A stretch of 32,000 bases of DNA from Candidatus Saccharimonadota bacterium (GCA_002952755.1 CP025011.1:630001-662000); one strand, 5' to 3'; counted from the stretch's first letter, positions 8,880 to 22,385 are shown. The notes: generated from the sequence alone by a model not told the origin. Translations and numbers: made by a program.

Positions 8880-9344
8880 CTATAGGCTCAAGCCCAGCTG
8901 ACTTATTGCACTCTGCTGCCCGCTAAAAAACGAGTCCCCCGCTTCAAGAGCTATTCGCCAAGCGTTCGTGACCTTAGCTTTCTCTAGCTCCATAGACTCA
9001 AACCAAGCAGGATGAGAAATAGGATTAGCATAGGTAGTGCTGCCCCAAACTGCAATTTCGTATAAGATGGGAACGGCTTTTATACCGTCTGCTGTGAGCG
9101 TATAGATAACCTTACGCTTGTCTTTGGAGTCTTGGGCCTTCGAGATGATGCCTTTTTTTTCTAGGTGAACTAGCCTCTCCGCTAAAACACTCGGACCGAT
9201 ACGCTCCTCAGATGCTAAAAACTCTCCAAAAGTCCTTTTGCCAAATGTTGCCATGTCGCGGTAAATGATCATAGACCACGTATCGCCGAATATTTCTACG
9301 GTGTAGTTAACGGGGCAATCAGATTTGTGATCGGGTCTCTTCAT
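8880..9344 (-). CDS. HxlR family transcriptional regulator
   Basis: CPVNYTVEIFGDTWSMIIYRDMATFGKRTFGEFL...GPSVLAERLVHLEKKGIISK...YTLTADG matches the HxlR wHTH consensus. Confidence 0.85.
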   Translation of the reverse strand: MKRPDHKSDCPVNYTVEIFGDTWSMIIYRDMATFGKRTFGEFLASEERIGPSVLAERLVHLEKKGIISKAQDSKDKRKVIYTLTADGIKAVPILYEIAVWGSTTYANPISHPAWFESMELEKAKVTNAWRIALEAGDSFFSGQQSAISQLGLSL

Positions 9345-9365
9345 AAATACATAGTATCATATTTG

Positions 9366-9382
9366 ACTTTGATAATCAAAGT
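9366..9382. promoter_or_regulatory. Perfect palindrome in divergent hxlR/DHFR-family promoter (candidate HxlR operator)
   Basis: ACTTTGAT-A-ATCAAAGT at 9366-9382. A related imperfect copy, ACTTTAATTATCAAAAT, lies at 9404-9420. Confidence 0.4.
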
Positions 9383-9442
9383 AAGATACACTGGGCGCAG
9401 ATAACTTTAATTATCAAAATAAAAGGGACACCATAAATAGTT

Positions 9443-10054
9443 ATGAGAAAAATAATCGTTCAAGAATTTATTACCTTAGACGGAGTTATGCAGGCACCTG
9501 GTGGACCAGAGGAAGATACGTCAAGTAATTTTAAATACGGCGGCTGGACTGCACCGTATTTTCGCGAAGCTGATGATGCGGCAGTTGATTTTATGCAGAA
9601 ATGGATGGAATCCACCGATATTTTGCTGGGCCGAACAACCTATGAGATTTTCGCTGACTACTGGCCCGGACACGCAGATATGTGGCCGGGTATCAACGAT
9701 GTTACAAAATATGTCGTTTCTGACGTCCCCATGGAGCTTACCTGGCACAACTCGGAACTGATCACGGGTGATGATGTCGTGGCGCAACTCAAAAAGCTTA
9801 AAGATTCAGAGGGTTCTGATATCAAAGTTCACGGCAGTAGTAAAGTAGCCCAGACATTGCTTAAAAATGGCTTAGTTGACGAGCTATGTCTTATGACATT
9901 CCCAATTGTACTCGGCATTGGCAAGCGTTGGTTCGACGAATCCTCTATGCCTGCGGCCTTTACGCTGACAGACAGTGTAGTAACGCCAAATGGTGTCATT
10001 TGTGCCTGCTACAAACGAGCCGGAGAAGTTAAGACGGGCATCGTTAGTGAATAA
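9443..10054 (+). CDS. Dihydrofolate reductase family protein (RibD C-terminal domain type)
   Basis: 203-aa ORF: FITLDGVMQAPGG...LLGRTTYEIFADYWP...IKVHGSSKVAQTLLKNGLVDELCLMTFPIVLGIGKRWF. Confidence 0.85.
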   Translation: MRKIIVQEFITLDGVMQAPGGPEEDTSSNFKYGGWTAPYFREADDAAVDFMQKWMESTDILLGRTTYEIFADYWPGHADMWPGINDVTKYVVSDVPMELTWHNSELITGDDVVAQLKKLKDSEGSDIKVHGSSKVAQTLLKNGLVDELCLMTFPIVLGIGKRWFDESSMPAAFTLTDSVVTPNGVICACYKRAGEVKTGIVSE

Positions 10055-10069
10055 TTACAGGGCACTCCT

Positions 10070-10471
10070 ATGCTACACCTAAAAACTATACGAACAATTG
10101 TCTACCCCACTCGCGACCTTCAGGCCAGCATTAGTGCTTGGTCAAAAATAGGCACTCTTGTACATCAAAATGGTAATTCCGCCACTTTCCTAGGCAAAGA
10201 TGGAATTGATATTCGCTTGAGTCGCTTACCCTGGGTCGACTATCCACTGGTATTTTGGGAAGTTGCAGATATTGAACAAGCCCATGCTAGTATGCTCGAA
10301 GATGGCGCTACCGCTATGGGCGAAGTAGCGGGTGGCATCCTCGATGAAGTTGGGCGACAATCCATTGCCAATGGTGACCCCAAAACGGGCATTATCAGTA
10401 CACCGGGTCGCAAGCTGGCCATATTTAAGTTTGCAGACGGTAATCTTGTGGGCTTATTGCAGGATTTATAG
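10070..10471 (+). CDS. VOC/glyoxalase-like family protein
   Basis: 133-aa ORF 15 nt after the DHFR-family gene. Its size and beta-alpha-beta-like pattern (IVYPTRDLQASISAW...LAIFKFADGNLVGLLQ) resemble glyoxalase/bleomycin-resistance folds. Assignment by eye only. Confidence 0.5.
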   Translation: MLHLKTIRTIVYPTRDLQASISAWSKIGTLVHQNGNSATFLGKDGIDIRLSRLPWVDYPLVFWEVADIEQAHASMLEDGATAMGEVAGGILDEVGRQSIANGDPKTGIISTPGRKLAIFKFADGNLVGLLQDL

Positions 10472-10530
10472 ACGAACTTAAAAACGAGACATTTAATCTC
10501 TGGCTAACGAGCCATGCAGGAGAATAAGAT

Positions 10531-11958
10531 ATGAAACAAGCAATAGAGAGATTTTCAAAAACTGCACCGCGGGTTAGTCTGCAATGGGCGATCCTATGCC
10601 TGGTGCTACTTGCCGACGCACTCGACGTGATCGACGGAACAATTACGAACATCGCAGCCCCCACTATTGCCAATCACTTGGGTGGTGGAGTGGGCCTGAT
10701 CAAATGGCTAGGCCCCGCATATATGCTCGCTATGGGCGTGCTGCTTTTGATAGGCGGACGGTTGGGTGACAAATTTGGCCAACGCAAACTTTTCTTAATG
10801 GGTATGGCTGGGTTCACTCTAGCCTCGGCTGCCGCTGGGTTTTCGCCTGACCCAACACTGCTTATCATCGCCCGGGTTGCTCAGGGAGCGTTCGGAGCGC
10901 TCCTTCTTCCTCAAGGTATGGCGATTATGACGAAAGCGTTCAGTCCTGAAATGCTTGCCAAGGCGTTTGGGCTGTTTGGCCCGGTGCTTGGGGTTTCCAG
11001 TGTTATCGGCCCGGTCTTGGCCGGTTTCATCATCAGTGCTAATATGTTTGGGTTGTCCTGGCGTCCGATTTTCCTCATAAATCTCATTCTTGGCGTTATC
11101 GGGCTGGGTATAGCTCACAAAATTTTACCACGTGATAACGGTGATCGCTCTGTCGTCATCGATGGCTGGGCCTCTGGCCTGTTAGCGGGTGCTATGTTTG
11201 GGCTACTGTATGGGCTAATTCAGGGTTCGACCGACGGCTGGGGCGGTGTTCCCATCGCCTCGATTATCATCGGCGTGTTGTTTTTCGCTGCTTTCGTTTA
11301 CCGTCAGCACACCGCCGATCACCCGCTCATCAAGCCTTCGCTGCTTAAGAAGCGGGGATTTACTTCCGGAATGCTAGTGGGGCTGGTCTCATTTGCTGCT
11401 GCCACAGGCCTAATTTTCGTGTTGTCACTGTTCCTGCAGGAGGGATTGCACGTGAGTGCCCGGAACACTTCGCTGAGTCTAGTACCGGTCACCGTAGGGC
11501 TCATTGGAGCTACTTTTGCCGCCATGGGCGGTCTGGTTACGAAACTCGGTCGCAAGCTTGTCTTCATTGGCCTGGCTGTTGCCATAGCCGGTTGTGCGGG
11601 AGTCCTGGCGCTTGTTAATCATTTTGGTACAAATGTTCACCTCTTGGCCCTCGCTCCGGCGTTCATTGTCATCGGAATCGGCACGGGGCTTTGCTTTACT
11701 ACGATACCCACTGTCGCGCTCGGCGACGCAACGCCGGAAGAAGCTGGCAGCGCCAGTGGCTCGCTCAGTTCAATTCAGCAACTATCTTCAGCGATTGGTT
11801 CAGCCGCGGTGACGTCAGTCTTCTTTGGGGCGGCAAGCTCGGGCATGGCTCACGCCATGAAAGTGACGCTTATCGTCGTCTTAGCTGCCATTATTTTCAG
11901 CTTCCCGTTTGTCTTCCTCATGCCGCATAAAGCACCGGCGGGGCCTCCTGGCGAGTAG
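10531..11958 (+). CDS. MFS transporter, DHA2 (EmrB/QacA-like, 14-TMS) drug:H+ antiporter type
   Basis: 475-aa highly hydrophobic ORF. MFS motif A-like GGRLGDKFGQRKLFL sits after TM2, and the length fits 14 TMS. AGGAG Shine-Dalgarno lies upstream. Confidence 0.85.
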   Translation: MKQAIERFSKTAPRVSLQWAILCLVLLADALDVIDGTITNIAAPTIANHLGGGVGLIKWLGPAYMLAMGVLLLIGGRLGDKFGQRKLFLMGMAGFTLASAAAGFSPDPTLLIIARVAQGAFGALLLPQGMAIMTKAFSPEMLAKAFGLFGPVLGVSSVIGPVLAGFIISANMFGLSWRPIFLINLILGVIGLGIAHKILPRDNGDRSVVIDGWASGLLAGAMFGLLYGLIQGSTDGWGGVPIASIIIGVLFFAAFVYRQHTADHPLIKPSLLKKRGFTSGMLVGLVSFAAATGLIFVLSLFLQEGLHVSARNTSLSLVPVTVGLIGATFAAMGGLVTKLGRKLVFIGLAVAIAGCAGVLALVNHFGTNVHLLALAPAFIVIGIGTGLCFTTIPTVALGDATPEEAGSASGSLSSIQQLSSAIGSAAVTSVFFGAASSGMAHAMKVTLIVVLAAIIFSFPFVFLMPHKAPAGPPGE

Positions 11959-12017
11959 ACGCTGTCCAGTCGTGAATGCGCTAGCGCTTGGTTCGGGGAA
12001 ATCACAAAAGTGAACCT

Positions 12018-12530
12018 CTACGGCCTCCCGGCCGTAGCATCACTCTAGTTCAAGCGTGGCTTGTCCGCTGTCTTCTCGGCCTTGTTGTTCAATGTAGCGT
12101 CGGACTACGCTTTCGTTCACGCCAACAGTGGAGATAAAGTAGCCCACGGACCAAATACCGTCAAAGCCCCAATAGACCTTGCCGAGAAATGGAAACTTAG
12201 CCCGCATGTCACGAGCGGTATTGGCCTTAATCAGTGAGACTGCTTGGCTGAGGGCTGGTTTGGGTGCGACACTCAGCAAGATGTGAGCATGGTCTTGATC
12301 AGTGTTTGCCTCGTGAATGACAATCTCAGGATGGTGTCGCTGGACTTCCAGAATCTTGAGCTTGAGATAGTCGGCCATACCACTCGTGAAAATCTTGCGT
12401 CGGTATTTGGTTGAGATGACAAGGTGGTAGCGAGTGTAGAAGACAGCGTGACCGAGTCGGTTATATTGCATACGCTCAGTGTACAAGAGAAGACTGTGGA
12501 GGGGCTACATCCACGGCCTACCGGCCGTGG
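12018..12530 (-). mobile_element. IS200/IS605-family element (tnpA only, IS200 type), copy 1
   Basis: The tnpA gene is flanked by near-identical subterminal hairpins: CTACGGCC-tccc-GGCCGTAG (12018-12037) and CCACGGCC-tacc-GGCCGTGG (12511-12530). True ends lie somewhat outside these hairpins. Confidence 0.75.
12040..12486 (-). CDS. tnpA: IS200/IS605 family Y1 (HUH) transposase TnpA
   Basis: 148-aa ORF with YHLVISTKYRRKIF, HUH motif DHAHILLSV and catalytic-Tyr region SVGYFISTVG. Confidence 0.9.
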   Translation of the reverse strand: MYTERMQYNRLGHAVFYTRYHLVISTKYRRKIFTSGMADYLKLKILEVQRHHPEIVIHEANTDQDHAHILLSVAPKPALSQAVSLIKANTARDMRAKFPFLGKVYWGFDGIWSVGYFISTVGVNESVVRRYIEQQGREDSGQATLELE

Positions 12531-12728: not shown

Positions 12729-13215
12729 CCCCGTGGCAAGACCACGGGGTATCATGGGTAGCAGTCAGGTATAACCATTACCAGATGGTTAACTGGCTGG
12801 ACGTTGGTGCTGGCTTGGTCTTTCCTTGGTTTCTGACATAGGCTTCGACGGTGTTCCAATTGCCAGCAGTACTGACGGTGCTGACGTAATAGCCGTCTGA
12901 CCAAAATTCCCCACCCCAGAGATCTTTCTTGAGACTTGGAAATTGCTTGAATAGTTCACGGGCCACATTGGACTTAAAGATACGTACGAACTGACCAATG
13001 CTGTATTTGGGATGGAAGCTAACTGGCAAATGGATGTGATCACCATCCGTACCGATCTGCTCAATGGTCAGTTCATAGCGTAGGCTTATTTCATATGCTG
13101 GCGCCTTACAAGCGGCAGCAATTTCTTCTTGGAGCAACGCTTTTCGATACTTAACCGGAAAGACTGGATGGTAGTGACAATCGTAGGCGCAGTGATTACT
13201 TTGAACCCATTGCAT
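12729..13215 (-). mobile_element. IS200/IS605-family element, copy 2 (upstream end not defined)
   Basis: A second, sequence-divergent tnpA has a downstream hairpin CCCCGTGG-caaga-CCACGGGG (12729-12749). I could not find the matching hairpin upstream of 13215. Confidence 0.6.
12778..13215 (-). CDS. tnpA: IS200/IS605 family Y1 transposase TnpA (divergent second copy)
   Basis: 145-aa ORF with YHPVFPVKYRKALL, HUH-like DHIHLPVSF and SDGYYVSTV. It clearly differs in sequence from copy 1. Confidence 0.8.
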   Translation of the reverse strand: MQWVQSNHCAYDCHYHPVFPVKYRKALLQEEIAAACKAPAYEISLRYELTIEQIGTDGDHIHLPVSFHPKYSIGQFVRIFKSNVARELFKQFPSLKKDLWGGEFWSDGYYVSTVSTAGNWNTVEAYVRNQGKTKPAPTSSQLTIW

Positions 13216-13300: not shown

Positions 13301-13639
13301 ATGAATAATGCTACGTACTTTTTAAACCAAACACAATATGACTGGCTGGCGCACAAGCTGCCTGAGCCAGTCATAAAGACTAAACATGTTACTCCAAATA
13401 ATGAGCTACTGAATAGCATACTGTTTGTTCTCAAGACCGGCTGCCGCTGGATGGATATACCAAGCTCAGTCTGTAGCCACAACTACAGCTCTTGTTGGCG
13501 CCAACTCAACTACTGGCGGAAGTGCGGCAGGCTTAAGTTGGTATGGCAATGTGTCCTGGTGCTGCTCGACCGACAAGGAACACTTGACCTAAGTCTCGGC
13601 AACCTGGATGGGGATAGTGAACCTATTCCAAACTTTTGA
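13301..13639 (+). pseudogene. Truncated IS5-family transposase (N-terminal DUF4096-like part only)
   Basis: 112-aa ORF: NSILFVLKTGCRWMDIPS...SCWRQLNYWRKCGRLKLVW...LDLSLGNLDGDS matches the N-terminal HTH region and the first-D region of IS5/IS427-group transposases. The remaining DDE domain is absent. AAGGAGGG Shine-Dalgarno lies upstream. Confidence 0.7.
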
Positions 13640-13739
13640 AGATTTTGAATCTGTTAAGGATAAGCAAGCAGACATTGAGGCGGTTCGCCAAGTGCTTGAT
13701 GAAGATGAAGCGGCGCAGATCGGGGAGGCGGTATGTTAA
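13608..13739 (+). pseudogene. 43-codon ORF, either the orphaned 3' end of a truncated upstream gene or a small coupled ORF
   Basis: The frame reads MGIVNLFQTFEDFESVKDKQADIEAVRQVLDEDEAAQIGEAVC*. Its stop overlaps the PLD gene start (GTATGTTAA). The same frame is recognisable at the 3' end of the decayed gene at 4762-5365 (...WLGIVNL[18-nt insert with stop]FQTFEDFESVENTQ...AVRQV). Confidence 0.4.
13610..13694 (+). repeat. Diverged repeat arm B (partner of 4686-4789)
   Basis: See arm A. The shared blocks are GGGGATAGTGAACCT, ATTCCAAACTTTTGAAGA, GAATCTGTT and GTTCGCCAAGTG, in the same order. Confidence 0.7.
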
Positions 13740-14218
13740 GTCGTATCCTCCAATTCCGCAAGTCTGCCGCGCCCGATTTAGTCACATCAAAGCTGTTCAA
13801 TGAAGAGACATTCTATCCGGCTTTTCTGAAGGACCTCAAAAACTGCCAGAGTGAGCTGATTATTGAGTCGCCATTCATAACGAGTAGGCGTTTGAACCAA
13901 CTACTACCGACTTTGGAGAAACTAAAAGCCCGCAAGGTTAGAATTGTTGTTAATACTCGTGACCCTCACGAACATGACGAGGGGTATCATCGGGAAGATG
14001 CGCACCGAGCAATAGCTAAGCTCCAGCATGCGGGTGTCCACGTACTCTACACTGGTGGCCATCATCGTAAGTTAGTCATTGTTGACCGAAAGATTCTGTA
14101 CGAAGGTAGCCATAACGTGCTATCACAGAACGACAGCTCTGAAGTTATGCGCCGGATCGAGTCGGTACAACTTGCCTGGCAGATGATCGGGTTTGTGGGC
14201 TTGGATAAACACTTTTAA
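13733..14218 (+). CDS. PLD-superfamily (single HKD motif) Nuc-like nuclease/phosphodiesterase
   Basis: 161-aa ORF with a complete HKD motif, HRKLVIVDRKILYEGSHN (HxKx4Dx6GSxN). Its size matches single-HKD Nuc-type enzymes that dimerise. No signal peptide. Confidence 0.85.
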   Translation: MLSRILQFRKSAAPDLVTSKLFNEETFYPAFLKDLKNCQSELIIESPFITSRRLNQLLPTLEKLKARKVRIVVNTRDPHEHDEGYHREDAHRAIAKLQHAGVHVLYTGGHHRKLVIVDRKILYEGSHNVLSQNDSSEVMRRIESVQLAWQMIGFVGLDKHF

Positions 14219-14259: not shown

Positions 14260-14817
14260 ATGCCTAAGAAACACTTACTTAAGAAGCATAAAAAGAAGCT
14301 AATTGCAGCTGCTGTAGCTGCGGTTACAGTTGCCATTGTCGGCGCAGCCGTGCTTACATCGCGCCCAAAGACTGACGATACCGTCTATCTGCCGCCATCA
14401 CCAACGAAGACGAGCAGCTGTGTCGCCAATGCTGGCATTGAAGATAAGGCCTGTACTCCAGGAGCGGTTATAGTGTCGGCGACGAAAGCTCAAATCTGCA
14501 CGCCCGGCTATTCAAGTTCAGTTCGCAATGTGCCGGAGAGCGAGAAGAATCAAGTGTATGCAGAGTATGGCATTGCCACTCATACAACTGGTCAATATGA
14601 AGTCGATCATCTTATTAGCCTAGAGCTGGGTGGTTCAAACGATATTGCCAACCTCTGGCCAGAACTTGCCAATCCGACGCCTGGCTTCCACCAAAAAGAT
14701 CAGGTCGAGAACTACCTGCATAAGCAGGTCTGTGACGGAAAGCTATCGCTCAAGCAAGCGCAGCAAGAGATTGCTACGGATTGGCTACAAGTATATACCA
14801 CGGCGATCACGCACTAA
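14260..14817 (+). CDS. Membrane-anchored/secreted HNH (His-Me finger) nuclease-like protein
   Basis: 185-aa ORF. A Lys-rich N-terminus is followed by the hydrophobic helix LIAAAVAAVTVAIVGAAVLTS. The HNH core is YEVDHLISLELGGSNDIANLWPE, and Cys pairs lie in the extracytoplasmic part. Confidence 0.7.
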   Translation: MPKKHLLKKHKKKLIAAAVAAVTVAIVGAAVLTSRPKTDDTVYLPPSPTKTSSCVANAGIEDKACTPGAVIVSATKAQICTPGYSSSVRNVPESEKNQVYAEYGIATHTTGQYEVDHLISLELGGSNDIANLWPELANPTPGFHQKDQVENYLHKQVCDGKLSLKQAQQEIATDWLQVYTTAITH

Positions 14818-14945
14818 TGGGGTATGAAATCACGCTAGCACAAACGCAAATAGACAATTACGGTTCAGGAGAGTATAATTGTACTTGGAAGAAAATCCAA
14901 CCGAACACTGCGCCTCGCGCGTGGCGCCCGCAAGGGCTAGGCGTT

Positions 14946-14982
14946 CCACCCTCTGCCGCAAGGTACGGTGGTTTTTCTTTTT
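14946..14982 (+). terminator. Rho-independent terminator after the PLD/HNH pair
   Basis: CCACC (14946-14950)...CCG-caaggta-CGG...GGTGG (14967-14971) is followed by TTTTTCTTTTT (14972-14982). Confidence 0.5.
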
Positions 14983-15576
14983 CTAAAGCTTTTGAATGAT
15001 CCCCTGTTTTTCCAGTTGCCGCTGTAGAGCTTTGTAGCCCCGGCCATCGCTGGCAGCATCCCGCACTAGCCCTGCGATGCGATCGGCTAGCCGTATCAGT
15101 GGTTCGCTTGCATCTCGTGCGCCTCTGATTTTTCTTGATTTTATCCCCAGCTCGCGGAGCTGTTTGCCGACGCGTGTCTCCTCGGCACGTTTGAGTCCGT
15201 CAATGGTGACTGAAACTTTGTAGTTGTCTGTAAGACGATGCTTTGTCCGGTACTGACTAATCGCCTGTGCGATGGCTAGCACGGTTAGCTGCTCATACGC
15301 TCCGGTGCCCGTTTCGGCATATTGGCTATAGAAGAGTTTGTGTTTGAAATCGCCTGCGCCAACTGACTCAAGGTATTGGTTGCGGCTATCCAGGGCAGTT
15401 TTAGCGCGTACCCACTTCTTTTTGCCAATGCCACTTGTTTTCTCGGCTTCTTCTAGGTAGGCGTCCAGTTTATATCTTTCTTCGGCAACTACTACAGTTA
15501 CTACGATAAATAGCTGGCCCTTGGTGTCTTGGCCGGTTTCATCTACGTAGCAATAAAGTTTATGAGGTGAAGACAT
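14983..15576 (-). CDS. DUF3800-like protein
   Basis: 197-aa ORF. N-terminal LYCYVDETGQD followed by a hydrophobic strand (LFIVVTVVV), plus the C-terminal LIRLADRIAGLV, matches my recollection of the DUF3800 pattern (y.DEsG ... l..aD.iag). Function unknown. Confidence 0.5.
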   Translation of the reverse strand: MSSPHKLYCYVDETGQDTKGQLFIVVTVVVAEERYKLDAYLEEAEKTSGIGKKKWVRAKTALDSRNQYLESVGAGDFKHKLFYSQYAETGTGAYEQLTVLAIAQAISQYRTKHRLTDNYKVSVTIDGLKRAEETRVGKQLRELGIKSRKIRGARDASEPLIRLADRIAGLVRDAASDGRGYKALQRQLEKQGIIQKL

Positions 15577-15680
15577 AAGCTAGCTTATTGTACCCTCGCT
15601 TGGGCAGAAAGGGTAGCCTGGAGGATGGGCTATTTATTGTGCTAGATAAGTATTCTGGCCACAATAAAGCGATCGGTCCT

Positions 15681-17264
15681 TTACGGATTAAGCATTGAAA
15701 GCACTGTCTTATGTGTGCATCTATGCGGCATTGTCAATATCCAGAAGGGTATCAGATACTTACGAGACTTTAGCGGTTCTGGCAAGGATTCGTCCATGTT
15801 TTGATTCGATTGCTCGACAAGCTCTTTCCATGATTGGGTTGCATCAGGGAAAGTATCAAGCAGCATGCCTTTGTCGCCAATCCGCCACAGGAGTAAGTCA
15901 TTTGGATTGTCTGCAATGACCTCTTGGTTAGATATTAAGCTAATAAGAAGCCAATGGTGCTCAAGCAGCGGTCGTTGGCCGCTACGCGCTGCGAGCAATA
16001 TCGCTGGCCACAAACAGTAGGCTCTGTTCTGAAAGCTCTCGGTAATCTCGTCCTCGTTCAATGAGAACGACCATTCGGCCGATTGCTTTGAAGTGTAATA
16101 AGGGCTTGGAATGCCTGAGCCTTCGTCGGCATAGCTTGATAGCAGGCCATTGAGTAGCCCAGCTATCTCTATCTCGGCAGGTCGTGTCTGATTTGCGCGC
16201 AACAAGAAGACGATGTAGTTGAAAAGCTGCGGTGTAGAGCTTTCGCCCAGGATTGCTTTGTGTTTCGAGAGCTCTAGCAATTTCTCTGCTAACTCCTTGG
16301 AGAACTTTGGCATGATGGCTTTTGTGGCGCAGTAAATCAGATACCCCGATATATAGCCCATCAGCTCCGTGCAACGCAATTTATGTGTAATTAAACCCTC
16401 GGAAAGAAGGCCGTATGTGCCATCCACAAAAAATTTGGTATCCGCAACGATGTCATCAATCAGTGGGCTAAATACAGCTCCTACTTCGCCTAGAATCGTA
16501 TCTTCGATCAAGGCAACATGGTTATCGGCTATGCTCCAGTCATTAGCAAAGTACAGGATAGTGAGCAAAACCAAAATCCACGCGTTAATGATTTCGATGT
16601 AATTCTCTTGAGTGTATTTGTTGGTAAGAAGGTAGCTACATAAGATGCACGCCGCTTGAAGTGCTTCTAGCCTTTTCTGTTTCGACCTCGAAGAATATGA
16701 GCTAAGCCATTTTTCGAAGAATAATTTAAATTCTTCTCGGTTGAGTGTTTTGTCGCCGTGCTGACAGTATATTTCTAAGAACAGATTGAGATCTTGCGCA
16801 TCCGCAGGAAAGAAACTGCCATAGCCATCAGTAAAACGCTTTACAAGCTCCTCTTTGTCAATTGTCGCTACTCCCATATGACCGTTTGCTTGCTGACGTG
16901 TCGAATAGTCAACAATAGTTCGCTGCACTGGATTTAGGAACGAGCCATTCGTCACCACGTAGCATTTCCATTTATCCGGCGGTGTCTTAAAGGATGAGTG
17001 AACGGGTGGGATCTGAGTTAGATCGTTGATCTGGCCGTTTATTTTGTTCCACTCAGAGGTGCTGATATTGTCGCACTTTAATTGAAAGCAGCAGATTTCG
17101 CCCTGAGGATTTAACGCTATTACGTCTTTACCTTGTTCATCAAGGCCACCACGTGCACGCAGTATCGTATAACCCTCGGTAATTAAAAGTTGCACGAATG
17201 GTGTTGTGAAACTGAGCTCTTTACAGCTAGTCAACCAGTTTTCTACTAGCCTGTTCTGCATCAT
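15681..17264 (-). CDS. Mrr-like PD-(D/E)xK nuclease domain fused to ~400-aa uncharacterised helical region
   Basis: The track ORF 15681-17285 starts at TTG. The first ATG is at 17264 (MMQNR...). The N-terminus LLITEGYTILRARGGLDEQGKDVIALNPQGEICCFQLK fits the Mrr_cat pattern (GY...GG.D.G.D[VI][VI]A ... QxK; D54/Q68/K70 in track numbering). I recognise nothing in the remaining ~400 aa. The start overlaps the 3' end of the upstream gene by 38-59 nt. Confidence 0.6.
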   Translation of the reverse strand: MMQNRLVENWLTSCKELSFTTPFVQLLITEGYTILRARGGLDEQGKDVIALNPQGEICCFQLKCDNISTSEWNKINGQINDLTQIPPVHSSFKTPPDKWKCYVVTNGSFLNPVQRTIVDYSTRQQANGHMGVATIDKEELVKRFTDGYGSFFPADAQDLNLFLEIYCQHGDKTLNREEFKLFFEKWLSSYSSRSKQKRLEALQAACILCSYLLTNKYTQENYIEIINAWILVLLTILYFANDWSIADNHVALIEDTILGEVGAVFSPLIDDIVADTKFFVDGTYGLLSEGLITHKLRCTELMGYISGYLIYCATKAIMPKFSKELAEKLLELSKHKAILGESSTPQLFNYIVFLLRANQTRPAEIEIAGLLNGLLSSYADEGSGIPSPYYTSKQSAEWSFSLNEDEITESFQNRAYCLWPAILLAARSGQRPLLEHHWLLISLISNQEVIADNPNDLLLWRIGDKGMLLDTFPDATQSWKELVEQSNQNMDESLPEPLKSRKYLIPFWILTMPHRCTHKTVLSMLNP

Positions 17265-17832
17265 ATTCCTTCTTCTTTTGGGCAATTATATCTTTCATTC
17301 GTTGCTTGGCTACTGGGTCGTTGTCGGCCTCTTCCATGAGTTTGCGGTACTTTTCTTCCTGATTTGGATGGATTACCATTGTTGGCATTTGCGGGTTACC
17401 GAATTTATCAAAGGCGATACTAATCTTACTGATGGTGTCTAGGAATAAATCTATGGATAGTGGCTTGCCGCCCGCATCAACTACGTTGCCCGTCTCCTTT
17501 GTGGTTTCGTCCAGAACTTGGTAATTGATCCGCGCTTGTTGGCCACCAAATTCCTTAGCTTTCTTTGCAACCAGTTTCAAAACGTCCTCTGGCTTCATTT
17601 TTATTACATCTTCGTATTTGAGTGCGTATTCAACCCTAGCCTCTTTGTAGTCGGTTTCTTTTCGCTTGTTGGTATCATCTTGTGTGTTATGAACTAATCG
17701 TCGGCCTTCATGCTGAGTAAAGCGACGAACATCTTTGAACGGCCCCAACTCCTCGCGAGCCTGAGTCTCGAAATAATTAAGAACCATTTTCTCGAGGCTG
17801 CTTTTGAGTTCGGGATATTTTGGAAGAGCCAT
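17227..17832 (-). CDS. Hypothetical protein (201 aa, charged, no recognisable motif)
   Basis: A long ORF with a GAGGG Shine-Dalgarno about 7 nt upstream. Co-directional with the Mrr-like gene and overlapping it. Lys/Glu-rich C-terminus (AQKKKEYDAEQASRKLVD). Confidence 0.6.
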   Translation of the reverse strand: MALPKYPELKSSLEKMVLNYFETQAREELGPFKDVRRFTQHEGRRLVHNTQDDTNKRKETDYKEARVEYALKYEDVIKMKPEDVLKLVAKKAKEFGGQQARINYQVLDETTKETGNVVDAGGKPLSIDLFLDTISKISIAFDKFGNPQMPTMVIHPNQEEKYRKLMEEADNDPVAKQRMKDIIAQKKKEYDAEQASRKLVD

Positions 17833-17894
17833 GCTAAGCCCTCACGCTATTTAACGACATATTAATGGCCATAGCGTATCTGGCGCGCGGGGTG

Positions 17895-18125
17895 TTACCG
17901 CACACCCTCAAACAACTCTTTAATCTCAACGCTAAGAGCTTGGGCGAGCTTCCGCAAGGTAGAAAGGCGCACAAACTTCGTGCCACCCTCAATAAATGCA
18001 ATAGTCGTAACGTGCGAATCAATCTTCGCCGCTAATTGTTCTTGTGTCAGGCCGCGTTTGCGGCGCAGCTCAGAAACGCGCTTACCGAACAAGCGCATCA
18101 GAGCCTTTTCTTGTGTATCAGCCAT
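17895..18125 (-). CDS. XRE-family helix-turn-helix transcriptional regulator
   Basis: The track ORF 17895-18131 starts at TTG, with an ATG at 18125 (MADTQ...). HTH: LRRKRGLTQEQLAAKIDSHVTTIAFIEGGTKFVRLSTLRKLAQAL. Confidence 0.85.
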   Translation of the reverse strand: MADTQEKALMRLFGKRVSELRRKRGLTQEQLAAKIDSHVTTIAFIEGGTKFVRLSTLRKLAQALSVEIKELFEGVR

Positions 18126-18160
18126 ACTCAAAGGATAGAGAGGCTAGACTTTTAGTTGAA

Positions 18161-18205
18161 TAGACTTTAAGTCTATGCTAAGTTGCTACATAGACTTAAA
18201 GTCTA
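18161..18205. promoter_or_regulatory. Two perfect 15-bp palindromic operators in divergent XRE/radC promoter
   Basis: TAGACTT-T-AAGTCTA (18161-18175) and TAGACTT-A-AAGTCTA (18191-18205) lie 30 bp centre to centre. A degenerate third copy, TAGACTTTTAGTTGA, starts at 18145. Confidence 0.6.
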
Positions 18206-18212
18206 TAAGTAT

Positions 18213-18767: not shown

Positions 18768-18807
18768 AGCCGAGCACCTATGCGGTATGTCCATCGCTCG
18801 GCTTTTT
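18768..18807. terminator. Bidirectional-looking hairpin terminator
   Basis: AGCCGAGC (18768-18775) pairs with GCTCGGCT (18796-18803). It is preceded by AAAAA and followed by TTTTT. The loop is 20 nt. Confidence 0.5.
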
Positions 18808-18832
18808 GTTATTTGAAAGGTACTATACGTTT

Positions 18833-19588
18833 ATGGTTAAAACACAATTTCCCGAAATGAATTTGTTAATTGATAAGTTACACAATTCAATCAAAATCAC
18901 ACTCGGTGATAAACTCCGTGGCCTCTATTTGTTTGGCTCGCTTGTAGGTGGTGACTTTGACCCAAAAACTAGCGACATTGACCTGCTGGCTATTGTGGAG
19001 AGTGATATTAGTGAGGATGATCTGCGAAGTCTCAAGGTCATGCACCAAAACTTTGTCCGTGAGTATCCCGAATGGCGTGATCGAATAGAAGTTGCTTATG
19101 TCGGAGTCGAGGCTATGAGAAAGTTCAAGACAGACACCGTGACCATCGCACGCATTAGCCCTGGCGAGCCATTGCACTATCGGGACATGAATATTCAGTG
19201 GCTCATGGACTGGTATATGGTGCAGGAACAGGGGTTAGCCATAGAGGGGCCGTCTCCTAAAGTGTTGATTCCCGTCATTACTAAAGATGAATTTGTAGCC
19301 TCTCTTAAAGGTGAATATCCTTCTTGGCTGGAGCGGGCAAAAGAAGCACGTCGGGTCGGCTACCAGTCGTATGTCGTTTTGTCTCTGTGCCGCAGCCTAT
19401 ATGCAATTCGTTTTGGGCAGCAGGTTTCGAAGTTTAAAGGTGCATCTTGGGCGGCGACTGAATACCCACAATGGGCTCACCTTATTCAGCAAGCGACAGA
19501 ATGGCACGGATCATCGGACAACACAGACAGTCTCGATACCCAAGCCGAGACGGCACGCTTTGCTGAGTTTATGCTCGATCAGGCATAA
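18833..19588 (+). CDS. Nucleotidyltransferase, ANT(3'')/AadA-like architecture (NTP_transf_2 + DUF4111-like C-terminal domain)
   Basis: NTase motif LYLFGSLVGGDFDPKTSDIDLLAIV (GS...DxD). At ~251 aa, its length and layout parallel AadA-type aminoglycoside adenylyltransferases (LYGSAVDGGLKPHSDIDLLVTV). The substrate is not inferable. The track start 18806 is TTG; the ATG is at 18833. Confidence 0.7.
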   Translation: MVKTQFPEMNLLIDKLHNSIKITLGDKLRGLYLFGSLVGGDFDPKTSDIDLLAIVESDISEDDLRSLKVMHQNFVREYPEWRDRIEVAYVGVEAMRKFKTDTVTIARISPGEPLHYRDMNIQWLMDWYMVQEQGLAIEGPSPKVLIPVITKDEFVASLKGEYPSWLERAKEARRVGYQSYVVLSLCRSLYAIRFGQQVSKFKGASWAATEYPQWAHLIQQATEWHGSSDNTDSLDTQAETARFAEFMLDQA

Positions 19589-19697: not shown

Positions 19698-22385
19698 ATG
19701 CCCCATTGGCTCGACATCTTACTGAATGGCCCAGCTCGCTACACCGAGGCGCATAATTTAAGCCCGCTATGGACGCTGGCGGTGGTGATTGGTGCGCTGC
19801 TGGTTGAGTTTGGCGCGGCGTTCCTCTTGATTCGCCTTGTTATCTTTTTATTCGAGCACGCGCAATCGTTTTTCGCGTGGGTGCTGCGCAAGTTTGGCGT
19901 GGGCAGGCGCGAGATATCCTCCACATTTTTGCAGCTCACATTTCCGGCCGACACAACAAAATCTGCTTACGCTACGGAGCAATTGCACATTCTGATGCGC
20001 AATCTCGTAAAGCACTTTGGCTTTTGGGATCGCATGGCGGGTCATCGGCGGCCGTATTCGTTAGAGCTGGTGGCGACCAAAGAAAAAGGCATCTGCTACG
20101 TTATCCGCGTGCCGGAGCATGAAGCGACGATAGTACGGCGCACGCTTTTGTCGTTTTTGCCTGGCCTGAAGGTGGCCGAGATTGACGATTACACATCGGA
20201 GTTGGCTGGTACCGCAGTCGGCGTTGTTGAGCTTAAATTGGGCGGCGACTACCTGCTGCCGCTGGGCGTTAATAAAGCGTTGGATGAACACGACCCTATC
20301 GCATACCTCACTGGCCATATGCGCAGCCTCGCGCCGGGCGAGCTGGTTGCTTACCAAATTGTGGCTTTGCCGGTTTACGACTATACGCACCCAAACGAAC
20401 TACGCCGGATGCGGGATATCCGCCACCGCATTGCACTTAACAAAGAGCTTTCGCCGAAGTTGATGACCACTCGCCTCGATGTTCCGGCGCTCGTACTCAA
20501 GTTGCTTATCGCTCCCGTCTGGGCGCTCGGCATGGGGCTCAAGATATTCGGCGGCATCCTCGACGCCATTATGCATAACGATATACCCGACGAATGGAAG
20601 AGCAGCACTGACAAGCGGCGAGCTGGTGACCCATATGAGCAGGAGCTGGGCATGACCATCAAGGAAAAGCTCGACCAACATCTGTTTGAAGTATCTATTC
20701 GGGTGCTGGTGGCTGTGCCGGGTGGTGAAGGCGTCAGCAGCCGTTTGAGTTCAATCGTGTCGTCGTTTGAGACGTTTAGTAGTCCGCGTCAGTCCATACG
20801 GATGCGCCGTGACATTCCGTTCTTTGCGCCGGGCGACAAGCATTTGCCCCGGTTCCGCGAGCGGGTGCTGTCGCCGCACGTTATTAGCCACCCGACGATT
20901 CTTTCGGCTTCGGAACTAGCCGACCTGTATCACTTCCCGAATACTGACCTCACCAAGACGGAAGGCCTAGTTAAAAGCCGCAGCCGCGACTTGCCAACGC
21001 CATTATCTTTGAAGGGCGACAACGCGAAGTTCGACGTTGTAGTGGGGGCTAACGAGTTTGGCGGTGAGGTGCAAGAAATTGGCATAAGCCTGGAGCAGCG
21101 CCAAAAGCATACTTACATTATCGGGAAGACCGGCACGGGCAAGACGACGTTGCTCAAGAGCTCCATCTACCAGGATATGCTCAATGGCAAAGGATTGGCT
21201 GTATTCGACCCGCATGGCGATATGTTCCGCGAACTGTTGCAGATTGTGCCGGAGCACCGCCGTAAAGATGTGATTGTATTTGATCCATCCGATCGCGAGC
21301 ATCCCGTCGGCCTCAATATCCTCGACCCGGGCATTGAGTTTGACGATGAAGACGATAAGCATGAATGGATTACGAGCACGGTGCTGTCCGTGTTTGCGAA
21401 GTTGGCCGACGAAAACCAGTGGGGGCCGCGCATGGAGCATATTTTGCGCAATACCACGCTGACCGCACTACAAACTCCGAACCCTAGCCTCTATACCTTG
21501 CAACGGTTGCTGACTGACAAGAAATATCAAAAAGAGGTTGCGAAGAAGCTCAAAGACCCAGCGCTCAAGCAGTTCTGGGATAAGGAATTTAAGATGATGG
21601 GCAGTATGCAGATGTCTAACGCCACCGCACCGCTGACGCATCGTTTAGGGCACTTCATTACGGCTAAAATGTCGCGGCACATTTTGCTGCAAGAAAAGAG
21701 TACCGTGCGGATTGCCGATGTTATGAACGAAGGCAAGATTTTGCTCGTTAACCTATCTAAAGGCGACATCGGCGAAGATCAGAGCTTTTTCTTCGGAACA
21801 ATTCTTACGTCGTTTATCTGGATGGCGGCATACCAGCGTACTAAAATACCAGAAAAGAAACGCCGGGATTTCTTCGTGTACGTGGACGAGTTCCAGAACT
21901 TTGCTACGCCGCAGTTTGGCGATATCACTAGCGAGGGCCGGAAGTTCCATGTTTCGCTGATCGTCTCACACCAAAACATTGCCCAGATTGAAGACAAAAA
22001 CCTGGTGAAGATAGTGGCGGGCAACGCGCATACGATGATTTGCCTGAAAGCCAACCCGGAAGACGAAGCATTCATCTTGCCATACATGAAGCCGGAGGTT
22101 GAGAAGGGGGACATCGTGAATCTCGCGCCGTATCACTTCTATATGAAGATGACCGGTGATGAAAGCGAGGATGCCTTTTCAGGCCAGACAGTGCCGCTGG
22201 ATGTCGAGGAGTCGGAGAAGGTTGCTAAGACGGTTCTAGCGAATAGCCGGAAGCAATACGCAACGCCGAAGGCTGAGGTTGAGAAGCAGATGGAAAAGCT
22301 GTTTGGCGACAGCGTATCCGATAAGAGGCCAACAGCCAAAGCTGAACCAAAGTCGAAGATGATATCCAGGGTACATGGGCTTTAG
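19698..22385 (+). CDS. VirD4/TraD-like (type IV coupling protein-like, FtsK/HerA-class) membrane ATPase with long N-terminal extension
   Basis: 895-aa ORF. Hydrophobic helices lie near the N-terminus (LWTLAVVIGALLVEFGAAFLLIRLVIFLF) and at ~aa 270 (LIAPVWALGMGLKIFGGIL). Walker A is IIGKTGTGKTTLL and Walker B is FFVYVDEFQNF, followed by GRKFHVSLIVSHQNIAQ. Confidence 0.75.
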   Translation: MPHWLDILLNGPARYTEAHNLSPLWTLAVVIGALLVEFGAAFLLIRLVIFLFEHAQSFFAWVLRKFGVGRREISSTFLQLTFPADTTKSAYATEQLHILMRNLVKHFGFWDRMAGHRRPYSLELVATKEKGICYVIRVPEHEATIVRRTLLSFLPGLKVAEIDDYTSELAGTAVGVVELKLGGDYLLPLGVNKALDEHDPIAYLTGHMRSLAPGELVAYQIVALPVYDYTHPNELRRMRDIRHRIALNKELSPKLMTTRLDVPALVLKLLIAPVWALGMGLKIFGGILDAIMHNDIPDEWKSSTDKRRAGDPYEQELGMTIKEKLDQHLFEVSIRVLVAVPGGEGVSSRLSSIVSSFETFSSPRQSIRMRRDIPFFAPGDKHLPRFRERVLSPHVISHPTILSASELADLYHFPNTDLTKTEGLVKSRSRDLPTPLSLKGDNAKFDVVVGANEFGGEVQEIGISLEQRQKHTYIIGKTGTGKTTLLKSSIYQDMLNGKGLAVFDPHGDMFRELLQIVPEHRRKDVIVFDPSDREHPVGLNILDPGIEFDDEDDKHEWITSTVLSVFAKLADENQWGPRMEHILRNTTLTALQTPNPSLYTLQRLLTDKKYQKEVAKKLKDPALKQFWDKEFKMMGSMQMSNATAPLTHRLGHFITAKMSRHILLQEKSTVRIADVMNEGKILLVNLSKGDIGEDQSFFFGTILTSFIWMAAYQRTKIPEKKRRDFFVYVDEFQNFATPQFGDITSEGRKFHVSLIVSHQNIAQIEDKNLVKIVAGNAHTMICLKANPEDEAFILPYMKPEVEKGDIVNLAPYHFYMKMTGDESEDAFSGQTVPLDVEESEKVAKTVLANSRKQYATPKAEVEKQMEKLFGDSVSDKRPTAKAEPKSKMISRVHGL

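Follow-up and report, generated by a model that had tools for sequence, protein, structure and literature searches.

Genes and features at the locus

We analysed a stretch of 32,000 nt from a Candidatus Saccharimonadota bacterium (GCA_002952755.1 CP025011.1:630001-662000), which we call the window, and looked at the group of genes lying between positions 14,983 and 18,205. The list of open reading frames (ORFs) places four genes there, all co-directional on the minus strand, as a first-pass annotation made from the sequence alone had described: an XRE-family gene, a gene for a 201-aa protein (the small gene), a gene for a large protein with a nuclease-like N-terminus (the large gene), and a DUF3800-like gene. 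The XRE gene is separated from the small gene by 62 nt, the small and large genes overlap, and 104 nt lie between the large gene and the DUF3800-like gene. All positions are collected in Table 1. The functional unit is smaller than the four-gene cassette first proposed: it is the pair formed by the small and large genes, discussed below as a nuclease module with a probable role in defence.

Table 1. Features of the locus, in coordinates of the window
Feature	Position	Strand	Remarks
DUF3800-like gene	14983-15576	-	197 aa; ORF calling and Pfam PF12686
9-bp inverted repeat TTTATTGTG / CACAATAAA	15633-15641 / 15660-15668		18-nt loop; lies within the 104 nt that separate the large and DUF3800-like genes
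Large ORF	15681-17285	-	534 aa, counted from TTG 17285
Large-subunit gene	15681-17261	-	526 aa from ATG 17261; nuclease head and all-alpha body
All-alpha C-terminal domain, residues ~141-526 (~385 aa)	15684-16841	-	AlphaFold2 model
Nuclease domain, residues ~1-140	16842-17261	-	AlphaFold2 model and invariant residues
35-nt dual-coding overlap	17227-17261	-	3' end of the small gene and 5' end of the large gene
Small-subunit gene	17227-17832	-	201 aa; ORF calling
Shine-Dalgarno-like purine stretch GAAGAAGGAA	17266-17275	-	~5 nt 5' of ATG 17261, within the small gene; putative role
XRE-family gene	17895-18131, or 17895-18125	-	HTH_3; 76 aa if started at ATG 18125
Operator region	18145-18206		Separates XRE from the divergent RadC; holds three C-box-like sites
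Degenerate third site	18145-18156		C-box-like GACT-TTT-AGTT (18147-18157)
17-bp palindrome ATAGACTT-N-AAGTCTAT	18160-18176		Perfect; contains GACT-TTA-AGTC (18163-18173)
17-bp palindrome ATAGACTT-N-AAGTCTAT	18190-18206		Perfect; contains GACT-TAA-AGTC (18193-18203)

The gene pair and its dual-coding overlap

The small gene was found directly 5' of the large gene, on the same strand, in 84 of 84 loci examined, and these loci span Saccharibacteria, Acidobacteriota, Actinomycetota, Chloroflexota and at least five archaeal lineages. Divergence in one protein goes with divergence in the other (Mantel r=0.87, a value reached by 0 of 999 permutations), and at like rates, with mean distances of 0.70 and 0.67. 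So complete a pairing of the core genes is far beyond chance. The first-pass annotation had made its proposal depend on the two genes keeping together in other genomes, and they do.

Homologues of the large protein form 60 clusters with lengths of 523-538 aa, and those of the small protein form 65 clusters, all of about 200 aa. When a profile of the large family was searched against 1.84 billion proteins, 1494 cluster representatives were retrieved at E<=1e-3 and 657 at E<=1e-30, the clusters (about 1500) being defined at 50% identity. Scanning by motif, with each species represented by one genome (185,579 species genomes), detected about 80 loci. Their spread is very patchy, over unrelated bacterial phyla and archaea. 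The bacterial loci belong to Saccharibacteria, Gracilibacteria, Acidobacteriota (many), Chloroflexota, Actinomycetota (Nocardia, Jidongwangia), Latescibacterota, Nitrospirota, Desulfobacterota, Planctomycetota and Gammaproteobacteria, and the archaeal ones to Bathyarchaeia, Methanosarcina, Methanobacterium, Aenigmatarchaeota, Nanoarchaeota and Nitrososphaerota. No viral relative was found in IMG/VR (2.9 million viral contigs) or in GenBank phage records, and a phage origin was rejected on these grounds. About a dozen loci carry a split small or large gene (L008, L012, L057, L058, L064, L066, L068, L073, L076 and L078-L080); these are often long-read assemblies of metagenome-assembled genomes, in which sequencing indels and true pseudogenisation are indistinguishable.

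Neither core protein belongs to a family in Pfam, NCBIfam, PHROGs or PADLOC 2.0. A literature search by accession and keywords returned no description of the family; papers are not searchable by sequence, and a recent naming is possible.

We found no third gene conserved with the pair, either when 968 neighbours were clustered with BLAST or when 136 immediate neighbours were scanned with Pfam and PADLOC. When the window proteins were used as phmmer queries, no XRE gene upstream and no DUF3800 gene downstream of the pair was detected in the ~80 other loci. Because even relatives at 90% and 79% identity (L095 and L003, respectively) have neither gene beside the pair, the four-gene cassette is lineage-specific, and the description of the locus as one XRE-controlled unit did not hold. 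That the XRE, 201-aa, 534-aa and DUF3800 genes act together as one four-gene system is extremely unlikely. Their common direction and short gaps, both in the window and in identical metagenomic contigs, would agree with such a system; the absence of the two outer genes from all other loci argues against it, and so does the occurrence of DUF3800 elsewhere with retrons and with its own noncoding RNAs (PMC7736814, PMC5737381).

The overlap between the small and large genes, which had been given as 38-59 nt and taken as a sign of translational coupling, is real. It measures 59 nt if the large gene starts at TTG 17285, 38 nt with ATG 17264 as the start and 35 nt with ATG 17261. An ORF of 534 aa does run from TTG 17285, as first annotated, but comparative data choose ATG 17261 and a product of 526 aa, because an ATG, GTG or TTG codon is located exactly 35 nt before the last base of the small-gene stop codon in 72 of 81 distinct loci. 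The remaining nine loci have CTG, CTA or ATA at this position. The 526-aa product exactly matches a record in a public collection, and a purine-rich, Shine-Dalgarno-like stretch lies 5' of the large-gene start, with an equivalent (GGAGG/GAGGAA) in most loci.

In the window, the overlapping bases encode the end of the small protein (...A-S-R-K-L-V-D-stop) and the beginning of the large one (M-Q-N-R-L-V-E-N-W-L-T). Across the family, the overlap reads R-K-L-V-D-stop in one frame and V/I-E-N-W-L-T in the other, and its core, GAAAAYTGGTTGAYTAR, is almost invariant. All of 80 loci use GAA for E8 of the large gene, compared with a baseline usage of 59%, and 69 of the 80 use TTG for L11, compared with 18%; in the small gene, the R197 codon is NGA in all 80 loci, against 38%. 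These comparisons indicate that the overlap is selected in both frames, each frame limiting the synonymous sites of the other. Obligatory translational coupling, rather than frameshifting, would be the simplest reading, and the conservation of the 35-nt overlap supports the coupling that had been suggested. The retention of such a long overlap in bacteria and archaea is unusual and implies that the ratio or the order of synthesis of the two proteins matters.

Two other explanations of the overlap were rejected. A programmed frameshift or fusion of the two ORFs does not agree with a large gene that has its own conserved start and Shine-Dalgarno-like stretch, nor with frames that are independently constrained, and 0 of the 150 best family representatives have an N-terminal extension of ~200 aa. 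The other explanation was a riboswitch or conserved RNA structure located in the overlap or in the gaps; RNAalifold predicted no pairs in the overlap of 45 loci, and Rfam gave one sub-threshold chance match.

The overlap may also be given a larger part. The pair could be an unnamed pan-prokaryotic immune system, with the 201-aa protein and the ~385-aa helical domain as sensing parts whose folds have no solved relatives, and with the universally conserved 35-nt overlap as its regulatory device, although we regard this as unlikely. Ribosomes on the small gene would then occupy the ribosome-binding site and start codon of the nuclease gene. If an infection altered how the partner is translated, the ratio of nuclease to partner would change and the nuclease would be triggered, the architecture thereby hard-wiring the sensing of translation.

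Domains of the two proteins

The AlphaFold2 (AF2) model of the large protein was obtained with a 48-sequence alignment and reached a predicted local distance difference test score (pLDDT) of 89.6 and a predicted template modelling score (pTM) of 0.88. In this model, residues 1-135 are arranged, according to DSSP, as alpha-alpha-beta-beta-beta-alpha-beta-alpha-beta, an order that contains the alpha-beta-beta-beta-alpha-beta core of the PD-(D/E)xK superfamily. The invariant residues of this head, among 48 close and 90 diverse members (138 sequences), are E43, G45, (K46), D47, Q61 and K63, found in the motifs E43-x-G45-K46-D47 and Q61-L62-K63; E8, N9, W10, L11 and E16 of helix 1 are invariant or nearly so in the same set. 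The sequence carries the PD-(D/E)xK catalytic signature, with a D where strand 2 starts, (D/E/Q)-x-K in strand 3 and an acidic residue in helix 1. The PD-(D/E)xK-type N-terminus that had been proposed is borne out by the AF2 fold together with the invariant residues.

Foldseek comparison with the PDB gave matches local to the head, to NucS/EndoMS (probability 0.89-0.93) and also to EcoO109I, LmuA and Mus81, and no full-length fold match of the large protein. Against BFVD, a phage 'restriction endonuclease' was matched with a probability of 1.00 over 158 columns, and the further top matches were Rpb5 N-domains, an Mrr-domain protein and an MmcB-like nuclease.

The presence of NucS/EndoMS and Mus81 among the best PDB matches of the head would suit a housekeeping repair or recombination nuclease complex (NucS/EndoMS-like or resolvase-like) rather than a conflict system, and two genomic contexts (L089 and L099) without defence genes point the same way. 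We consider such a complex very improbable. These matches are local and weak and reflect the shared PD-(D/E)xK core only. The spread of the pair, detected by motif in about 80 of 185,579 species genomes, is very patchy, its neighbours are never conserved, and plasmids and mobile islands carry it; it has also been duplicated as a 2.9-kb unit.

A distant member of the family is encoded on plasmid pdjl-6-4 of Rhodococcus qingshengii, where it is annotated as a 'restriction endonuclease'. It scores 22.8 bits against Mrr_cat (PF04471), whose gathering threshold is 21 bits, and is the only member that clears this cut-off. The Rhodococcus gene shows the same 35-nt overlap, with an upstream gene of 195 aa, and hhalign related this pair to the two families with probabilities of 99.2% and 95.9%. 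We therefore file the head as a predicted PD-(D/E)xK nuclease with an Mrr-type D...QxK signature, and not as a demonstrated Mrr_cat member.

The ~400 aa that follow the head had been said to match nothing, and this was confirmed with Pfam, NCBIfam, PHROGs, PADLOC, PDB sequences and PDB and BFVD folds. In the AF2 model they form a domain of about 14 helices and one small beta unit, for which the PDB offered poor matches only, to tetratricopeptide repeats, 14-3-3 proteins and designed repeats (template modelling score, TM, <=0.2). Among the close and diverse members, R296/297 and R512/515 are invariant, and Y388/389 (in PSPYY), Q-S-W and a P-H-R near the C-terminus are nearly so. This C-terminal domain is presumed to be a regulatory, sensor or oligomerisation domain. 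Weak EF-hand_6/EF-hand_7 matches were observed in 15 of the 48 close members at residues ~160-190 (~16690-16780), around the invariant G170 (...YCQHGDKTLNREEFKLFFE...). An EF-hand was rejected, since the matches vanish in the diverse set and the loop has no calcium ligands; the stretch is probably a helix-loop-helix look-alike.

The AF2 model of the small protein is of moderate confidence (pLDDT 81, pTM 0.61) and contains long helices and a small hairpin. Its invariant residues are P4, K10, E42, G43, G115, N116, G145, K186 and the C-terminal R-K-L-V, and its conserved motifs are H-E-G (42-43), E-T-G-N-V-V-D (115-116), F-D-K-x-G-N-P-x-M-P-T (141-151) and the RKLV tail. The first-pass annotation had seen no recognisable motif in this protein, and Pfam, NCBIfam, PHROGs, PADLOC and the PDB agree with it. 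The protein matched no PDB fold and no PDB sequence, Pfam matched none of 52 members, and the Pfam scan found no helix-turn-helix (HTH), ribbon-helix-helix or AbrB fold in the family. Among PDB sequences, neither the small nor the large family has a relative with a solved structure.

A putative local controller and mobile surroundings

The XRE protein matches HTH_3 in Pfam (E=2e-11). Its best PADLOC model is 'Control_protein' (E=2.5e-13), and its top sequence relatives in the PDB are C.AhdI (1.3e-6) and C.BclI (4.9e-6). It has the size and similarity of a controller, that is, of an HTH_3 protein of ~75-80 aa nearest to the C proteins. The consensus operator of PvuII-type C proteins is GACT-N3-AGTC-N4-GACT-N3-AGTC (PMC2175313), and three GACT-N3-AGT[CT] boxes located 5' of the XRE start match the half-operator, with spacers of 5 and 19 nt and not 4. 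The two perfect palindromes that had been noticed in this promoter are both real; they are 17 bp long rather than 15, and a third, degenerate site accompanies them. The candidate operators also face the divergent RadC gene (18183/18213-18662). Scans for sigma-70 promoters and terminators gave no more sites than in shuffled sequence, and no methyltransferase is present among the genes annotated on either side of the XRE gene and the pair. From these sequence features, we infer that the XRE protein is a C-protein-type autoregulatory switch, borrowed from elsewhere, that sets expression of the nuclease operon and perhaps of RadC too. Because it is absent beside the pair in all other loci, it is a local accessory outside the conserved module, and the dedicated repressor of the first-pass annotation is thus a local acquisition.

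The DUF3800 protein is a member of its Pfam family, with 26.8 bits against PF12686 (cut-off 21) over profile positions 1-147 of 149 and with an N-terminal D-E motif, YVDETG, at residues 10-15. DUF3800 has been described as an RNase H2-like effector of type VII retrons, with a D-E motif (PMC7736814), and as accompanied by eleven different noncoding RNA motifs (PMC5737381). In the window, Rfam found no motif in the gap or around the DUF3800 gene. The inverted repeat that had been reported in the gap exists, with arms of 9 bp instead of 8; it has no T-tract and was not called as a canonical terminator. DUF3800 is the last gene before the probable boundary of the surrounding element, and we regard it as a separate neighbouring element, probably independent of the pair.

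This left boundary of a mobile element probably lies at ~14837-14866, because two contigs of one sequencing run (L001 and L093, SRR9952761) stop at window positions 14837 and 14866, with an overlap of ~30 nt, which indicates a branch of the assembly graph. The cargo of the element comprises DUF3800, the nuclease pair, XRE, RadC, a nucleotidyltransferase, a coupling protein and Replic_Relax. The nucleotidyltransferase (18806-19588) has an AadA_C domain and weak PADLOC PDC-S09 matches, and the coupling-protein-like ATPase (19698-22385, 895 aa) matches DUF8128/DUF87/TrwB_AAD_bind. Farther right, the identical contig L001 has NUDIX, Trypsin_2 and Replic_Relax genes annotated. The surroundings are consistent with an integrative mobilisable or conjugative element (IME or ICE), and the location of the pair on mobile DNA, as proposed, is supported by this ICE/IME-like content, namely Replic_Relax, the DUF87/TrwB-type coupling protein, RadC and the nucleotidyltransferase.

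A terminator-like hairpin is located at 14953-14971 (+). Left of the element, we observed IS200/IS605-type Y1 transposase ORFs (12040-12486 and 12778-13215), a DUF4096 transposase fragment (13301-13639), a PLD-family nuclease-like gene (13733-14218) that matches PLDc_2 and resembles the C-termini of MkoB/MkoC in PADLOC, and a gene for a 185-aa protein (14260-14817) that has a hydrophobic segment at its N-terminus and weakly resembles HNH/Endonuclease_NS_2.

Defence or mobile genes were located within 10 kb of the pair in 8 of 10 inspected contexts. They include type I and type II restriction-modification (R-M), Abi_C, nSTAND3, Fic, SLFN/AlbA, OLD-type endonuclease, ArdA, serine recombinases, an integrase and Tn7-like genes. 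Locus L003 holds type I R-M, Abi_C, SLFN/AlbA, nSTAND3, Fic and a serine recombinase, and loci L086-L088 hold a serine recombinase, RadC, Fic, type I R-M and SocA_Panacea. An N6_N4 methyltransferase, RE_BstXI, an integrase and a transposase are found at L095; an Mrr_cat gene and ArdA at L085 (Nocardia); an OLD-type endonuclease, an exonuclease and a DEAD helicase at L084 (the Rhodococcus plasmid); and a PDDEXK_1 gene with a Tn7-like transposon at L091.

On OZ244870.1, two copies of 2.9 kb (L023 and L024, about 9203-12239 each) are 99.86% identical and lie ~660 kb apart. Each consists of the pair and a downstream ORF of 104 aa, and upstream of one of them there is an insertion of 198 bp. Each copy stops close to a ATAGACTA motif common to both, and the pair may be mobile as a small unit. 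A family that is phylogenetically patchy and moves autonomously, among changing neighbours with many defence and mobile genes, shows the usual signature of defence or addiction modules.

An addiction module that stabilises mobile elements in the manner of toxin-antitoxin (TA) systems would have the 526-aa protein as its toxin and the 201-aa protein as a labile antitoxin made in excess. The gene order speaks for it, the small gene being upstream, overlapping and always with the large one and having no other partner, as does the location of the pair in Tn7-like cargo, on plasmids and on ICE-like elements. Disrupted copies at several loci would also fit, though many of these are error-prone assemblies. 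We nevertheless find an addiction module doubtful. A 526-aa toxin with a large extra domain and an antitoxin without a DNA-binding domain are unlike typical type II systems, no toxin or TA family model was matched, the two proteins diverge at similar rates, and some copies are in apparently stable chromosomal contexts.

Function and comparison with known systems

The reading that we prefer is a two-gene nuclease module that is probably a defence or abortive-infection system, with a probability of roughly 0.55. Nuclease activity, the role of the partner, defence function and XRE regulation are what we infer from sequence, model and context. The large subunit would be a DNA endonuclease with an Mrr-type E...D...QxK active site, and its all-alpha domain of ~385 aa would most likely control the nuclease by sensing, auto-inhibition or oligomerisation. 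The 201-aa subunit would be an obligate partner made from the same mRNA. Because the ribosome-binding site and start of the large gene lie within the last ~45 nt of the small gene, synthesis of the nuclease would be tied to that of the partner, and probably kept lower. The partner may restrain or target the nuclease until an invading element is detected. The pair would travel horizontally as a 2.2-kb cassette, and in this window the C-protein-like controller and its candidate C-box operators would keep the expression of a nuclease that may poison its own host at a fixed level once the cassette has been transferred. As first described, the module contains no methyltransferase, helicase or ATPase, and the two proteins match no defence-system model of PADLOC 2.0.

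Several results weigh against this module being a defence nuclease. Its defence function is read from gene context, and two contexts, L089 (Streptomyces) and L099 (Saccharibacteria-like), have no defence or mobile genes nearby. The 201-aa protein has no DNA-binding or enzymatic signature. Among PADLOC-DB 2.0 models it found no match, and the 534-aa protein matched DrmC only (E=0.034), which is noise. The full-length Foldseek E-values of the large protein are weak (best 2.7e-3), because the matches span the N-terminal domain only. Mrr_cat gave no match to the window protein even at E<=1, and the weak matches obtained concern 8 of the 48 close members (E 0.011-1) and 1 of the 90 diverse members (E 0.042). 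When the family was compared with an alignment of the E. coli Mrr clade, hhalign returned a probability of 0.2%, in a weak test (number of effective Mrr sequences, Neff, 2.0), and comparison with single Mrr_cat proteins gave no significant match. The term 'Mrr-like' of the first-pass annotation is therefore justified for the fold and the D...QxK signature, and not by an Mrr_cat match or by comparison with the Mrr-clade profile.

The same Mrr-type signature could belong to a two-subunit Type IV restriction enzyme that cuts modified foreign DNA. The helical domain, the 201-aa subunit or both would then read the modification, and the enzyme would not be toxic to its host nor cause abortive infection. 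Such an enzyme agrees with the lack of a methyltransferase in the module and of one conserved nearby, with the annotation and above-cut-off Mrr_cat score of the Rhodococcus member, and with the frequent co-location of the pair with R-M systems. It is, all the same, improbable. Pfam recognises no reader of modified DNA (such as a winged helix, SRA or YTH) in either protein or its family, although an unrecognised one in the orphan domains is possible, hhalign found no likeness to the E. coli Mrr clade, and the C-protein-type controller of this window suggests that dosage matters. In addition, no Type IV enzyme is known to have its subunits strictly coupled in translation.

If the pair is a defence module, it would add to the known systems a widespread nuclease-based one, present in bacteria and archaea and unrecognised by Pfam, NCBIfam, PHROGs and PADLOC 2.0, and it would give a function to two orphan protein families, possibly with two new folds. 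The overlap would represent a clean natural case of 35 nt under dual-frame selection across phyla and a tractable model of a harmful enzyme whose stoichiometry is set by translational coupling. In Saccharibacteria, other lineages of the candidate phyla radiation and Acidobacteriota the family is common, and several archaeal lineages have it too; few defence systems have been defined by experiment in these groups. The local C-protein switch, which lacks a methyltransferase, would show that regulatory parts of R-M systems are reused for other nucleases.

Compared with Type IV enzymes of the Mrr/Mrr_cat kind, the family shares the PD-(D/E)xK fold, the lack of a cognate methyltransferase and a Gly-rich loop followed by D and then, ~14-16 residues on, by Q-x-K (GGxxEQGKD...FQLK in the family and GDGGIDG...VQAK in E. 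coli Mrr), and one distant member clears the Pfam cut-off. In contrast to Mrr, where the nuclease is C-terminal, it is N-terminal here; there is no winged-helix N-domain, and the family adds the ~385-aa helical domain and the obligate 201-aa partner. Cap4 and LmuA of Lamassu likewise place a large body for regulation or oligomerisation after a nuclease head. The Foldseek match to LmuA (9hr5) extends over ~420-435 columns but is poor (TM 0.15-0.19, probability 0.16-0.23), and the pair, unlike these systems, has no SAVED domain, SMC-like LmuB, CD-NTase or other signal generator nearby.

The window locus resembles C-controlled Type II R-M systems (PvuII, AhdI, Esp1396I) in having an HTH protein of ~76 aa encoded 5' of the nuclease genes on the same strand, and GACT-N3-AGT[CT] boxes upstream of the controller's own start. 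It differs from them by the lack of a methyltransferase and by box spacings of 5 and 19 nt instead of 4, and the controller, being absent from other family members, is not part of the definition of the system. With type II TA systems, the pair shares two overlapping genes with the small one first, strict co-inheritance and a common location on mobile DNA, whereas its would-be toxin is large and multidomain, its would-be antitoxin has no DNA-binding fold, and no TA model matches. None of the resources queried describes the family, its partner, its C-terminal domain or the conserved dual-coding overlap; the kind to which they belong is familiar, that of a nuclease effector with a regulatory domain and a small partner.

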